IMG/VR virus record: IMGVR_UViG_2671180439_000007
Span: 1 to 41,324 of that record
Source: a virus
Taxonomy: Duplodnaviria > Heunggongvirae > Uroviricota > Caudoviricetes
Direction: 5' to 3' (one strand)
DNA length: 41,324 nucleotides
Positions 2,896 to 39,956 of the stretch are shown here, piece after piece (the stretch's first letter is position 1; each line of letters opens with the position of its first letter). A program made the translations under genes and the position numbers. The notes beneath the pieces are model-generated. The model saw only the letters and a program-made list of their open reading frames with translations. It was not told the origin of the DNA and did no database searches.

Positions 2896-4040
2896 GTGTA
2901 GTTCACCTCACCACGAACAGCCAGCTCCCCAACTCCCGGCTCAATATTCGCAGAAGGCGACACAAGGATATAACCTGAAGTACCGGCAACATCCCCTATC
3001 GCACGGTTGAGATCTGAAAGGTAAATTTTCCCTGTGCCGAGCGGGTTAGCGGATTCAAACAATACCCCGTCAATCGCATCAGCAATGGCCGCAGTCGTTG
3101 CACTGTCGGCATCAGATATCCCGCTTATTTCAAAATCGATAACGCGCTTGATGGGAGAGCAGACATAGTTAAGGGAAGTAACCGGCGCAAGCTGATACAT
3201 ATAATCGGCAACTCTCCCCTGATCCCCGGTGGCTTTTACAGCCCCCCACTCTTCCAGTTGAGAGACACCGTCAGTTCCTACAGGGAATCCATGATTGGTT
3301 TTATCATCGCCGTCGCACATGATGTAAATCACCACGGTACCCGGCCCCATCCCCCGGCGCCGTATCCATGCCCTGGTGATCCCCGACACGGATAAAGCCC
3401 AGCTTTTATAATCAGTGTCACTCCCTCCCTGCGGGGGATTCTGATACGCCAGCAGACCACGTAATCGGAAATCCTCTTCACTTTCAATGTTAGCGCCGCC
3501 GGTGGCAGGCTCAATCAGCGTGACCGAGCTGTCTATGCCGGGGGCATTAGCATCCAGTGTAAGAATGGTGCCAGCATCGGCATTTCCGGAAGCGCCTCCT
3601 CCTGTCACATCGTCTGTGATATCCGGCAAAACCGCTGTTACGGCGACCGTCGCACTGCCAGTGGTATTTATCGTTATGGCGTCATCGGTTATGTACTGGT
3701 AACCATCATCACGGTTTAACACAGCCCCTTTTGACAGTGTTTTTCCCGGTGTTCCGGTAACTTTCGCCGCCGGAGAGCGTGCTGCCGTTGCGGCTTTTCG
3801 GTAAATCTGCTTTAGTGCCATCCATCCGGCAAGCCACTCATCGGTAGAGGTGAAAGGCGTGCTCTGACGGGCAATATAATCCAGGTAGGCGTAGTGCAGA
3901 TGGGCCATGCCCGCATCCATATCAGCGAGCACCTTAAGGTTGCCAAACCGCAACAACGCGCCAACACTTTCAAGCTCTGCCTGCATAAACTGGCGATTCT
4001 CCTGCCGGAGCTCGCTCAGTGTTTTCCGCTTAAATGGCAT
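2892..4040 (-). CDS. Baseplate J-like protein (Mu gp47-like)
   Basis: 382 aa; size, position and overlap pattern in a Mu-type baseplate module. Confidence 0.7.
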   Translation of the reverse strand: MPFKRKTLSELRQENRQFMQAELESVGALLRFGNLKVLADMDAGMAHLHYAYLDYIARQSTPFTSTDEWLAGWMALKQIYRKAATAARSPAAKVTGTPGKTLSKGAVLNRDDGYQYITDDAITINTTGSATVAVTAVLPDITDDVTGGGASGNADAGTILTLDANAPGIDSSVTLIEPATGGANIESEEDFRLRGLLAYQNPPQGGSDTDYKSWALSVSGITRAWIRRRGMGPGTVVIYIMCDGDDKTNHGFPVGTDGVSQLEEWGAVKATGDQGRVADYMYQLAPVTSLNYVCSPIKRVIDFEISGISDADSATTAAIADAIDGVLFESANPLGTGKIYLSDLNRAIGDVAGTSGYILVSPSANIEPGVGELAVRGEVNYT

Positions 4041-34538: not shown

Positions 34539-35213
34539 ATGAAAACAATCCATGACATCCGGCGGTCTAACGCCAGAAAACTGAGAGATGGTGTTGGCGG
34601 AAATTCATCCTTTGCCACCATGATTGATCGCGAGCCAACCCAAACCAGCAGGTTTATGGGGGATGGCGCTACTAAAAATATCGGTGACAGCATGGCACGG
34701 CACATCGAAAAATGTTTCGACCTGCCTGTCGGATGGCTTGATCAAGAACACCAGACAACGAACATCACAAAAAAACCTGATGTTTCAATCACTAACAAAC
34801 AAATAACGTTAGTCCCTGTCATATCATGGGTACAGGCCGGAGCATGGAAAGAAGTTGGCTATTCTGAGGTTGATTTGAGCACAGCAGAAACGTATCCCTG
34901 CCCTGTACCCTGTGGCGAAATGACTTATATCTTGCGGGTGATTGGTGATTCAATGATTGATGAGTACCGCCCTGGAGACATGATTTTTGTTGATCCCGAA
35001 GTCCCTGCCTGCCACGGTGACGACGTTATTGCATTGATGCACGATACAGGCGAAACCACCTTCAAGCGATTGATAGAAGATGGAACACAGCGTTATCTCA
35101 AAGCATTAAACCCAAACTGGCCTGAGCCTTACATTAAGATTAACGGTAATTGCTCTATAATTGGTACAGTGATTTTCTCGGGAAAACCAAGAAGATACAC
35201 AATAAAGGCCTAA
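34539..35213 (+). CDS. Prophage repressor, P22 C2 / lambda cI-like with S24 peptidase domain
   Basis: 224 aa; C-terminal VIGDSM...GDMIFVDPEV...KALNPNWPEPYIKINGNCSIIG closely parallels P22 C2 as recalled. Confidence 0.85.
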   Translation: MKTIHDIRRSNARKLRDGVGGNSSFATMIDREPTQTSRFMGDGATKNIGDSMARHIEKCFDLPVGWLDQEHQTTNITKKPDVSITNKQITLVPVISWVQAGAWKEVGYSEVDLSTAETYPCPVPCGEMTYILRVIGDSMIDEYRPGDMIFVDPEVPACHGDDVIALMHDTGETTFKRLIEDGTQRYLKALNPNWPEPYIKINGNCSIIGTVIFSGKPRRYTIKA

Positions 35214-35225
35214 TCAATATTTATG

Positions 35226-35248
35226 AACCTGCTTCGGCAGGTTTTTTT
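35226..35248 (+). terminator. Intrinsic terminator after repressor gene
   Basis: AACCTGC-TTCG-GCAGGTT followed by TTTTTTT. Confidence 0.55.
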
Positions 35249-35252
35249 ATAC

Positions 35253-35280
35253 TTGACAATGTACCCATGAGATACATAAT
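35253..35280 (+). promoter_or_regulatory. pL-like promoter with operator in its spacer
   Basis: TTGACA 16-nt spacer CATAAT; third operator copy ATGTACCCATGAGATACAT (35259-35277) inside. Confidence 0.5.
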
Positions 35281-35901
35281 GTATCTAAAAGAAACATAAC
35301 ACAGGCAAGATTAAAACAAAATTTGGTTGTAACACGGCGTATGGCACATGCGTCGTTAGCGGTCTGGTGACGTTAAAGGGGACAATCCACTCCTTGCTCG
35401 AGCAAACAAACCAGGTAGCCGGAATGTGCAAGTCAATGATGATGCTGATAAGACGCCTAACCAGCGTGGCGATTCGGTTTGACGCCTGGGAAGAGACCAG
35501 GGTGCAACGATGAGGGCATTTATGGAGCCGCGACAAAGTGTGGTGCCGTAACTGGCTAAGTGCTCTCAGCGTTGTGGTGAATGCGCAGACTGATGCGCGA
35601 AAGACATTGCAGCTATTGCGGAAAAGAGCTGTTCGGCGGGGCAATTAAACGCCCGTGAGAGTCTGAAATAACCGCAAGCCGGAGATCAGCACCGGTCACC
35701 ACAACAGCCACTGCTTTGGCGGTACCAGTTTGTACACTTGCTTCCGGCTGGTACCGCTCTTTTTACAAAACAGAGAAGAGCATCACCGGACGACGGGCTC
35801 ATAACCCAATCCATCCGGGCGGCTGCCACCGCAGGTGTTCTTCTCTGTTTTGTGGAGAAACTAACCGACCTTGCAGGGTCGATATGATGAGGAGCAGCAA
35901 A

Positions 35902-36264
35902 ATGGCTAGCGAACGCAGTACTGATGTGCAGGCATTTATCGGGGAGCTGGACGGCGGCGTATTTGAAACCAAAATCGGCGCAGTTCTCAGTGAAGTCGCT
36001 TCCGGTGTGATGAACACGAAAACCAAAGGTAAGGTCTCGCTCAACCTGGAAATCGAACCATTTGATGAGAACCGTGTGAAAATCAAACACAAACTCTCAT
36101 ATGTTCGCCCGACTAACCGCGGGAAAATTTCCGAAGAAGACACCACCGAAACACCGATGTATGTCAATCGCGGTGGTCGCCTGACTATTCTGCAGGAAGA
36201 CCAGGGACAATTACTGACTCTTGCCGGTGAACCTGACGGAAAACTCCGCGCAGCAGGTCATTAA
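35902..36264 (+). CDS. Hypothetical protein (YfdP-like)
   Basis: Start set at ATG 35902 with GAGGAG SD; first gene of the leftward operon. Confidence 0.45.
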   Translation: MASERSTDVQAFIGELDGGVFETKIGAVLSEVASGVMNTKTKGKVSLNLEIEPFDENRVKIKHKLSYVRPTNRGKISEEDTTETPMYVNRGGRLTILQEDQGQLLTLAGEPDGKLRAAGH

Positions 36265-38476: not shown

Positions 38477-38826
38477 TGGAGCCATACAGCCTCACACTCG
38501 ATGAGGCCTGTCATTTTCTCAAGATATCCAGACCGACTGCCATTAACTGGATACGCACAGGGCGTCTTCAGGCAACACGCAAAGATCCCACTAAGAATAA
38601 ATCTCCTTACCTCACAACACGACAAGCCTGCATTGCGGCTCTTCAGTCTCCGCTGCATACTGTCCAGGTGAGCGCGGGTGATGGCATAACAGAGGAAAGA
38701 AAATGTCACTCTTCCGCAGAGGTGAAATATGGTACGCCAGTTTCACATTGCCGAACGGTAAAAGATTTAAACAGTCTCTTGGAACAAAGGACAAAAGGCA
38801 GGCGACAGAACTCCATGACAAGCTAA
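38476..38826 (+). CDS. xis: Excisionase
   Basis: 116 aa; [29 protein letters not shown]; overlaps integrase start as in P22-type modules. Confidence 0.65.
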
Positions 38827-39866
38827 AGGCTGAAGCATGGCGGGTCAGCAAACTTGGTGAAATACCTGATATAACGTTCGAGGAAGCGTGTGTCAGGTGG
38901 CTTGAAGAGAAAGCACATAAAAAATCACTGGACGATGACAAAAGCCGGATCGGATTCTGGCTTCAACATTTCGCAGGAATGCAACTAAGAGACATTACTG
39001 AATCAAAAATTTATTCAGCAATGCAGAAAATGACGAACCGGCGTCATGAGGAAAACTGGAGACTCAGGGCAGAAGCATGCAGAAAAAAAGGGAAACCTGT
39101 TCCAGAATACACGCCAAAACCAGCGTCCGTTGCAACGAAGGCTACGCATCTTTCATTTATAAAGGCCCTACTAAGAGCCGCAGAGCGTGAATGGAAAATG
39201 CTGGATAAGGCACCAATTATTAAAGTGCCTCAACCAAAGAATAAACGGATCCGCTGGCTGGAGCCCCATGAAGCACAAAGGCTGATTGATGAATGTCCGG
39301 AGCCATTAAAGTCTGTTGTTGAATTTGCACTGGCAACAGGCTTAAGACGCTCGAACATCATCAACCTTGAATGGCAACAAATAGACATGCAGCGCCGGGT
39401 GGCATGGATAAACCCGGAAGAGAGTAAATCAAACCGCGCAATTGGCGTTGCGCTGAATGATACTGCATGTCGCGTTTTGAAAAAACAAATCGGGAATCAT
39501 CACCGTTGGGTATTTGTGTACAAGGAAAGCTGTACCAAACCAGACGGAACGAAAGCGCCAACAGTAAGGAAGATGCGGTATGACGCAAACACAGCCTGGA
39601 AAGCGGCGCTGAGACGGGCTGGTATTGATGATTTCAGATTTCACGACTTGAGACACACCTGGGCAAGTTGGCTGGTTCAAGCCGGAGTCCCGTTGTCAGT
39701 GTTACAGGAAATGGGAGGCTGGGAGTCTATCGAAATGGTTCGTCGATATGCTCACCTTGCACCTAATCACCTTACCGAACACGCACGGCAAATAGACTCG
39801 ATCCTGAACCCATCGGTCCCAAATTTGTCCCAGTCAAAAAATAAGGAAGGTACTAATGATGTGTAA
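38703..39866 (+). CDS. int: Tyrosine integrase, P22 Int family
   Basis: 387 aa; N-terminus [46 protein letters not shown] matches recalled P22 Int; C-terminal [10 protein letters not shown]...RYAHL catalytic region; ends 15 bp from tRNA 3' end. Confidence 0.9.
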
Positions 39867-39880
39867 CTTATTGATTTTAA

Positions 39881-39956
39881 TGGTGCCGATAATAGGAGTC
39901 GAACCTACGACCTTCGCATTACGAATGCGCTGCTCTACCAACTGAGCTATATCGGC
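39881..39956 (-). tRNA. thrW: tRNA-Thr (CGU anticodon)
   Basis: Reverse complement reads GCCGATATAGCTCAGTTGGTAGAGCAGCGCATTCGTAATGCGAAGGTCGTAGGTTCGACTCCTATTATCGGCACCA; cloverleaf with CGT anticodon and CCA end. Confidence 0.9.

Follow-up and report, generated by a model that had tools for sequence, protein, structure and literature searches.

A modular array of conserved structured RNAs in the early leader of a lambdoid prophage

Introduction

The window analysed here is the 41,324-nucleotide (nt) IMG/VR virus record IMGVR_UViG_2671180439_000007, which is a lambdoid prophage of the CPS-53/SfV/mEp460/cdtI/Ayreon type. We describe the leader of ~620 nt that lies between its pL-type early promoter and yfdP, the first gene of the leftward operon. 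The leader has no conserved open reading frame (ORF) and is made of separable RNA modules. On the + strand, from the start at ~35287, these are module A, junction helix J1, cassette B, terminator T, a second junction helix (J2) with element C inside it, and a linker with a small hairpin, followed by the yfdP ribosome site. Compensatory changes conserve these structures among homologues, modules are reused in P1, epsilon15-like and lambdoid phages, and cassette B changes places with tRNA genes.

A ~170-nt RNA with a pseudoknot supported by covariation, carried by about one third of the complete E. coli genomes and by P1, a textbook phage, has neither an Rfam family nor an annotation. A recent study of this phage group remarks that the N gene is missing and guesses at a put-like RNA (PMC12315714). 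The leader provides a concrete candidate, and a conserved terminator, with which that guess can be tested. The exchange of cassettes with tRNA genes and the tRNA-like element inside the repeat hint at a set of phage RNA elements that has gone unexplored and may act on host systems that handle or cleave tRNA.

An initial annotation of the region, made from the sequence alone, had picked out a 15-bp inverted repeat with a boxA-like string on its left arm. It did not recognise the array of several independent modules, the second copy in the leader of the junction helix that the repeat forms, or the tRNA-like interior. The most conserved element, module A, lies 300-400 nt upstream of the features that it highlighted.

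The locus

The features of the leader and its flanks are as follows, in order of position.

34539-35213, + strand: ymfK (cI), a LexA-family repressor gene
35225..35244, + strand: intrinsic terminator closing the cI (ymfK) transcript, an 8-bp stem followed by a T-run
35253..35280, + strand: pL-type early promoter, TTGACA-16-CATAAT, matching 11/12 consensus positions
35260-35276: operator-like site TGTACC-N5-GATACA, inside the promoter spacer
35329..35510, + strand: module A, a structured RNA of ~170 nt with five helices and a pseudoknot, supported by covariation
35335-42/35348-55: helix H1 of module A, loop GGCAC
35363-67/35411-15: base of helix H2 of module A, with a variable apex
35414-32: invariant stretch of module A, GGUAGCCGGAAUGUGCAAG
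35453-56/35464-67: helix H4 of module A
35459-62/35476-79: pseudoknot of module A
35485-89/35497-501: helix H5 of module A
35505..35574, + strand: J1 helix, arms CAACGAUGAGGGCAUU (35505-20) and AGUGCUCUCAGCGUUG (35559-74), with a variable insert of 38 nt
35571..35705, + strand: cassette B, a tRNA-shaped module supported by covariation
35571-80/35696-705: closing stem of cassette B, a perfect 10-bp inverted repeat
35583-87/35594-98: 5' hairpin of cassette B, loop GACUGA, followed by a variable interior
35678-82/35692-96: 3' hairpin of cassette B, directly abutting the closing stem
35718..35764, + strand: terminator T, stem 35719-28/35748-57 (to 13 bp with G-U pairs), 15-nt loop, U5 at 35760-64
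35755..35768, + strand: boxA-like string CGCTCTTTTTACAA, made of the last stem bases of T, its U-tract and the first 4 nt of J2
35765..35853, + strand: J2 helix, 20 bp (35765-84/35834-53), which is the inverted repeat and encloses element C
35786-35832, inside J2: element C, a three-way junction with arm Ca (35786-35818) and arm Cb (35819-35832, a short variable hairpin)
35854..35881, + strand: conserved single-stranded linker GGAGAAACUAACC, then a small hairpin (35866-70/35877-81)
35889..36264, + strand: Shine-Dalgarno sequence GAGGAG (35889-94) and yfdP (ATG 35902, 120 aa), first gene of the leftward operon

The pL-like promoter upstream of the leader had been noted before and is confirmed. 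The operator motif recurs in the form TGTACC-N5-GGTACA at two more positions, 34455 and 34505, between cI and cro. As the site in the spacer matches these two intergenic sites, the promoter is plausibly controlled by the repressor in the manner of lambda pL, and we infer a transcription start at ~35287.

On the other side of the leader, the YfdP protein matches phrog_204 (function unknown). It is the product of the first pL ORF, in agreement with the earlier observation that an N-like gene is lacking. Downstream of yfdP follow yfdQ, yfdR, more ORFs in the same orientation and then a 387-aa ORF (38703-39866), which we take to be the integrase gene from its position and the CPS-53 gene order. 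Directly after this ORF is a tRNA-Thr(CGU) gene (39881-39956, - strand), which is probably the prophage attachment site. This gene accounts for the only match of the Rfam tRNA model in the window (39884-39956).

Folding z-scores computed over the whole leader are -3.5 (+) vs -3.3 (-) and do not tell the strands apart; we therefore assign the RNA to the + strand because of its G-U pairs, the promoter and the terminator. A search of Rfam 15 gave no leader match that reaches a gathering threshold, and permissive filters gave chance-level matches only (E >= 0.15). Weak matches to STnc370 and STnc50 were dismissed, as they are merely the cI terminator hairpin.

In E. coli K-12 the CPS-53 prophage (L041, 3248-3604) lacks the whole leader. 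Homology begins at 35883, 19 nt 5' of the yfdP ATG, where it is abutted by a fragment of the replication gene yfdO. Because of this absence K-12 transcriptomes are uninformative about the leader.

Coding potential

The claim that no credible ORF precedes 35902 is borne out. RefSeq has no annotation between ymfK (cI) and yfdP, and leader ORFs of at least 25 aa, on both strands, contain stops or frameshifts in homologues of ~80% identity, save two exceptions. The first, +35738-35887 (49 aa), is open at ~80% identity and is frameshifted or stopped in homologues that are more distant, phiNP and four other loci (L013, L026, L011 and L017); we judged its match to phrog_33599 to be an annotation artefact. 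The second is a 26-aa minus-strand ORF inside module A (35356-35436), open in the ~80%-identity homologues and with no family match. An extension of the yfdP frame in the 5' direction runs into in-frame stops at 3-36 nt from the ATG in three homologues (L013, L014 and L011), which confirms the start at ATG 35902.

We give hardly any credence, therefore, to the idea that part of the leader codes for a small protein, be it the 119-aa minus-strand ORF of mEp460, the 49-aa ORF or a longer YfdP. The idea draws on hypothetical proteins annotated here in some phage records, on the phrog_33599 match and on an N-terminally extended sb37 annotated in D23580. However, homologues disrupt the ORFs with stops and with indels whose length is not divisible by three, three of the homologues carry the in-frame stops just described, and substitutions preserve base pairs in a region where RefSeq annotates nothing. 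Several "hypothetical proteins" of phage records, and probably also plp and upl of P1, overlap RNA modules and may be spurious.

Module A, an RNA family new to Rfam

In an alignment of module A from 28 distinct sequences, 96.3% of the cells are paired and 12 pairs have changed on both sides. The covariation score is 0.315 vs 0.132 for shuffled controls (0/500 reach it), and controls in which the structure was slid stay at or below 0.082. The pseudoknot is formed by the H4 loop, [C/A]ACC, which pairs with GGU[G/U] 12 nt further 3', and its C-G pair has switched to A-U in five sequences. G-U pairs (U-G in 27/28 and 28/28 sequences) place the module on the + strand. RNAalifold independently recovers H2, H4 and H5, and a covariance model built from the module has a single match in the window (150.7 bits). 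Two unpaired stretches, GGUAGCCGGAAUGUGCAAG and GGCGAUWCGGUKUGAC, are invariant across genera.

For the 5' part of the module RNAalifold offers an alternative, a long-range helix GCACAU/AUGUGC with flanking pairs (35335-35360, 35424-35440). This helix is beyond the reach of a covariation test because it is built from invariant bases only. Since it and H1 are mutually exclusive, a conformational switch in module A is possible.

Module A occurs in 1834/5426 complete E. coli genomes (34%), at 75-100% identity, and is annotated in none of them. It is also found in P1, in epsilon15-like phages and in lambdoid phages. Its 19-nt invariant word located 23 homologous loci and one chance match among species-representative Enterobacterales genomes, with 2/23 loci binned in metagenome-assembled genomes that are titled Bacillota or carry no organism check. 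Neither gathering nor permissive thresholds gave an Rfam match to module A, and no description of it was found in the literature searched. Module A is, then, an RNA family new to Rfam and to that literature.

Two minor observations concern this module. In SPN9TCW (L007, 1501-1900) the H2 apex and the terminator loop carry an identical 13-nt word, UUCCCUUGAUGCU, a coincidence seen in 0/300 shuffles; this sharing is significant in the SPN9TCW type only, and other loci have short YCCUU motifs. In E. coli 2012C-4502 (NZ_CP027440.1, 1868888-1868919) a 32-nt sequence annotated as CRISPR matches module A 35350-35381 at 100%, and looks like a host spacer that targets the module.

Terminator T and the boxA-like string

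Terminator T is a G+C-rich hairpin of -21.2 kcal/mol (z = -5.0) followed by C and U5, and it has the sequence characteristics of an intrinsic terminator. Covariation is seen in 5/10 stem pairs. Among the loci examined, 24 have a homologous hairpin and U-run at a distance of 226-575 nt downstream of module A.

The string that had been likened to boxA is present, at 35755-35768, 2 nt from where it had been placed, and its last 4 nt do overlap the left arm of the inverted repeat. Its resemblance to boxA is not above chance: the rrn-type boxA pattern with 1 mismatch has 2 other sites in the window vs 1.76 expected, and the site at 35755 needs an insertion to match. The proposal that it is an antitermination element fails, because these nucleotides make up the 3' arm and U-tract of a conserved terminator and their letters vary. 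Homologues replace GCTCTT by GCCCTT, GTCACTT, GCAATTT or GACCTT, and what persists is the stem complementarity and the U-run. The missing conservation of letters refutes an assignment to the nut/boxA family.

These results bear on the idea that the leader holds a lambda-type nut site (boxA and boxB) serving an unrecognised N-like protein or Nus factors. Lambda boxA is CGCTCTTA, of which CGCTCTT provides the first 7 letters, and the site does lie in a pL leader. However, the letters are not conserved among homologues and match at chance level, and the string belongs to a covarying terminator. In addition, no boxB-type hairpin follows it, as the 20-bp J2 helix comes directly after, and the leader is without an N-like ORF. 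We consider a nut site here extremely improbable.

Junction helices and element C

The inverted repeat is found where it had been reported, with arms ACAAAACAGAGAAGA and TCTTCTCTGTTTTGT at 35765-35779 and 35839-35853 enclosing 59 nt. By our own estimate ~0.004 perfect 15-bp inverted repeats within 100 nt are expected per 41 kb. Pairing continues beyond the 15 bp to give 20 contiguous pairs, and over 25 nt the arms are 84% complementary. A 101-nt segment containing J2 folds at -51 kcal/mol (z = -7.8), and 0/200 shuffles are as stable. Conservation of the repeat with covariation had been fixed beforehand as the test of the initial annotation, and both were found in 11 homologues. In the alignment of these 11 sequences, 91.2% of the cells of 47 pairs are paired and 16 pairs have changed on both sides. 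The covariation score is 0.294 vs 0.157 for shuffled controls (0/500), with slid controls at or below 0.086.

J1, between module A and cassette B, has 16 pairs with one mismatch, and its segment folds at -34.3 kcal/mol (z = -3.3). At 17 distinct loci this helix comes after module A, where it shows compensatory changes and encloses inserts of 37-95 nt. The 3' arm of J2 is a direct repeat of the 3' arm of J1, and on this sequence relationship we regard J2 as a second copy of the junction helix. Both helices have the length that RNase III needs (about two turns of near-perfect duplex), and cleavage by this enzyme may be predicted.

Within J2, arm Ca of element C reads CCGGA..GGG-CUCAUAA-CCC..UCCGG. 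It carries the anticodon-loop signature CU-NNN-AA on a G-C rich stem, a motif kept in 16 sequences. The segment GGG-CUCAUAA-CCC is a 14-nt match to the anticodon arm of the E. coli initiator tRNA. The Ca loop lies ~85 nt upstream of the yfdP Shine-Dalgarno sequence. The linker GGAGAAACUAACC that follows J2 is kept in the 11 homologues, and 2/5 pairs of the hairpin 35866-70/35877-81 covary. Elsewhere, Klebsiella phage RCIP0034 has the C core after tRNA-Asn and tRNA-Arg, 3' of its Q gene, and two copies of the core lie within junction helices in the P1 ban operon.

The leader could be a sensor or attenuator, in which A acts as a riboswitch-like aptamer, or C as a tRNA-mimicking translational operator like the thrS leader; either would bind a ligand, tRNA or protein and thereby control termination at T or the translation of yfdP. 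Module A does look like a riboswitch, with its invariant junction nucleotides, variable peripheral stems and pseudoknot, and its 5' part has two mutually exclusive folds. Moreover, a near-perfect initiator-tRNA anticodon loop sits in Ca a short way upstream of the yfdP Shine-Dalgarno sequence. However, the 226-575 nt of interchangeable cassettes that part A from T leave no adjoining expression platform, and in P1 and the Klebsiella late operon A and the C core are found with neither a terminator nor yfdP after them. Complementarity between upstream modules and T exists in the window, with partner regions that vary among homologues; no consistent complementarity of this kind was found, the homologues not having been scored for pairing. 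On balance we find this reading improbable.

Cassette B and the tRNA slot

Every homologue of cassette B folds to a common scaffold. Among nine sequences 18/18 pairs of the scaffold are 100% paired, and seven have changed on both sides (0/500 shuffles). The slot that cassette B fills, after CGUUGUG, is occupied by tRNA-Arg(UCU) in phiV10, SPN9TCW and a Klebsiella phage, by an Ile-like tRNA in two Phytobacter loci (L013 and L033) and by an unrelated insert in Ayreon. To judge from these sequences, cassette B is interchangeable with genuine tRNA genes. The array of the window contains no genuine tRNA.

These exchanges raise the possibility that the modules are remnants of a decaying phage tRNA cluster together with linkers that promote recombination, an RNA with no function of its own. 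The array does hold hairpins that resemble T-arms and anticodon arms, relatives carry real tRNAs in the same slots, and the junction sequences that flank the variable cassettes are conserved in sequence. Decay, however, does not explain the compensatory substitutions that preserve, from genus to genus, the helices of A, B, T, J1, J2 and C. Nor does it fit module A, which is the best conserved part and bears no resemblance to tRNA, or the occurrence of the array, at 75-100% identity, in 34% of the complete E. coli genomes. We therefore think it very improbable.

Distribution and transcription in relatives

Similarity searches detected parts of the leader in 3242/5426 complete E. coli genomes. 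They also turned up in P1-type phage-plasmids and in phages of Klebsiella, Salmonella and Enterobacter, and many Enterobacterales genomes maintain the order A, B, T, C. In P1-type plasmids A and B are separate, with A directly after tRNA-Ile(CAU) and B directly after tRNA-Thr. In P1 itself 2.3 kb separate module A from Pban; the module directly follows a tRNA and just precedes ban, and a homologous terminator is absent downstream of it.

The P1 record (NC_005856) has two minus-strand genes, plp and upl (69472-70041), over + strand RNA modules (L005 ~3070-3560, record 69570-70060). Beneath them, downstream of trnA and trnT, are junction helices, a B-type cassette and two C-core hairpins, and plp and upl may be spurious ORFs over structured RNA. 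The P1 ban-operon genes, including plp and upl, are all non-essential by CRISPRi (PMC10695390), which supports an accessory role for the array.

Transcription of such a leader has been recorded in Salmonella phage ST64B, where the region from cI to the yfdP homologue is 815 nt long and has B-like, T and C modules and no module A. A 74-nt small RNA (sRNA), STnc1310, maps inside this cI-sb37 leader (PMC7067206). Its end corresponds to an internal hairpin and U-run of the leader, which is the one piece of indirect support that transcripts may end at the similar hairpin T. STnc1310 is expressed at 200-500 transcripts per million (TPM), and at >2000 when peroxide or nitric oxide induces the prophage; its level is ~2x that of sb37, the first gene, and ~10x that of the second gene (PMC7067206). 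These data show that leaders of this kind are transcribed once the prophage is induced, that discrete small RNAs arise from them and that their expression is polar. Two preprints, one on the Pas sRNAs (late-region sRNAs) and one on RNA-seq of a P1 delta-hfq strain (gene-level data only), were of no help here.

Both ST64B and phiNP retain T and C without A. In place of A they have a different common first module, AGCGAACAGGCAGGACGCCCACGAAGUAGCCGCC (ST64B, L037 900-1230; phiNP, L038 830-1200). ST64B also has an A-like remnant, CCUGUAGCCAGUGCAAG, just 5' of the terminator that ends STnc1310, and a further module, ACGGUAGUCCGUAUGGAGAA...GGCCGGAACCGUAACCGGCAC, is common to phiNP and P1.

Is module A an antiterminator?

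The initial annotation had suggested a structured regulatory RNA, possibly put-like. The general part of this suggestion stands, in that a conserved, structured, non-coding RNA follows a repressed early promoter; membership of the put family does not. The location is that of a put RNA. HK022 putL and putR and the putL-like RNA of HK639 are, like the leader, non-coding structured RNAs just 3' of pL in an N-less lambdoid phage, upstream of terminators; module A starts ~45 nt after the inferred start, and T lies 250 nt further on. However, put RNAs are ~70-126 nt long with two stem-loops and the common sequence GUCGGG..GGCGGG..CAGGAUGA..GGCAAUG, whereas module A has 170 nt, five helices and a pseudoknot. 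In addition, put is present in both early operons, whereas module A occurs once and is also found beside tRNAs in P1 and in podoviruses. The covariance model of module A found no match in HK022 or HK639, and comparison of the leader with the HK022 putL/putR core and with the annotated HK639 putL-like RNA showed no resemblance. Besides the putL-like RNA, the HK639 record (L042 12911-12970) has an 'M3-like RNA' annotated in the rightward early operon.

Module A could nevertheless be a cis-acting processive antiterminator of another family, which would fold on the nascent pL transcript, bind polymerase, carry it through T and further terminators into yfdP-xis-int and so replace N. A terminator within the leader of an N-less phage keeps this idea alive: an N-like gene is lacking, yfdP comes first in the pL operon, and 24 loci have a conserved terminator separating A from the first ORF. 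At loci with a recognisable promoter, the -10 element is followed within 8-55 nt by the start of module A, a placement like that of putL. Unpaired nucleotides that are invariant across genera are what binding to a conserved host enzyme would produce, and RNA-mediated antitermination is already suspected in the N-less LLS/ST64B/phiNP group (PMC12315714).

Several observations are difficult to reconcile with this function. Module A has no sequence or structural similarity to HK022 putL/putR or HK639 putL. It is single-copy in the window, with none in the rightward operon. The P1 copy, far from Pban and after a tRNA, lacks a homologous terminator on its 3' side, and ST64B and phiNP keep T and C but not A. 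The co-location of A with tRNAs, and its interchangeability with them, would also be left unexplained. We regard cis antitermination by module A as rather unlikely.

A stable-RNA operon?

The account that we prefer, and to which we give about an even chance, is that the leader is the non-coding 5' part of a repressor-controlled leftward early transcript, built and processed as a stable-RNA operon. After derepression most pL transcripts would stop at T, which would give an abundant RNA of ~480 nt. The J1 and J2 helices, sequence-conserved duplexes of 16-20 bp, would be processing sites, most plausibly for RNase III, and the tRNA-like closing stems would be handled like tRNA precursors. If junction helices and tRNA-like stems are processed in this way, A, B and C would therefore be released as discrete stable RNAs, which could act on conserved host machinery; the resemblances to tRNA point to factors that handle or target tRNA. 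Polymerases that pass T would yield the yfdP-int mRNA. J2 would serve as a junction and processing helix that presents a mimic of a tRNA anticodon arm beside the yfdP ribosome site.

Several points weigh against this account. STnc1310 comes from a leader without module A. A consensus promoter lies immediately upstream of A in only a few loci, so that we cannot claim that A is always 5'-terminal. Equally compatible with the extreme conservation of the unpaired nucleotides in A would be a ligand sensor or an RNA that binds polymerase in cis. Lastly, ARAGORN in standard, mitochondrial and relaxed modes reported no tRNA in the leader and accepted neither B nor C.

On the role of module A itself we can only be tentative. 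It is possible, and short of probable, that A represents a new class of phage RNA that binds host machinery, either as a second, structurally unrelated family of antiterminator RNAs that modify polymerase or as the lead member of an array of tRNA-mimicking decoys against tRNA-targeting defences. If the former is true, it would explain how the early left operon is expressed in lambdoid phages that have neither N nor put (SfV, mEp460, cdtI, Stx2c phages and CPS-53 relatives). If the latter is true, phages including P1 would deploy the array against host defences that target tRNA.

Relationship to other phage RNAs

A number of known systems resemble the leader in part. The CI RNA of P4 and the C4 RNA of P1/P7 are, like the RNAs proposed here, stable small RNAs processed from the untranslated leader of an early operon, with a tRNA-like shape and leader terminators. 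However, the window has no Rfam match to C4, no convincing internal target repeats were found in it, and a protein repressor is present.

STnc1310, described above, is closer in that its leader, from cI to the yfdP homologue, is itself homologous, its end is an internal intrinsic terminator and its induction is linked to the prophage. The ST64B leader differs in lacking A and having another first module, and STnc1310 has no counterpart of equal sequence in the window.

The lambda leader that contains nutL and precedes N is another useful comparison. Both are long untranslated pL leaders with a long duplex hairpin directly upstream of the ribosome site of the first gene, and in lambda the hairpin ahead of N is an RNase III site. 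Unlike the lambda leader, the one described here has no conserved boxA, boxB or N gene; its first gene is preceded by a terminator, and it contains several RNA modules that are independent of one another.

GOLLD and ROOL are, like the array, large and elaborately structured non-coding RNAs of prophages that are often found beside tRNA genes. Unlike them, the array has no Rfam match, is found in Enterobacterales, consists of separable units rather than one giant fold, lies in an early leader and ends in a terminator.

Clusters in which tRNAs are co-transcribed with stable RNAs also have a precedent in the T4 tRNA region, with its species 1 and 2 RNAs. The ban operon of P1 (the dicF-like region, trnA, trnT and trnI) has the same character as the window: structured RNAs in tRNA slots, pairing flanks and an early operon under repressor control. 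It physically carries A, B and the C core, which are there unannotated and undescribed.

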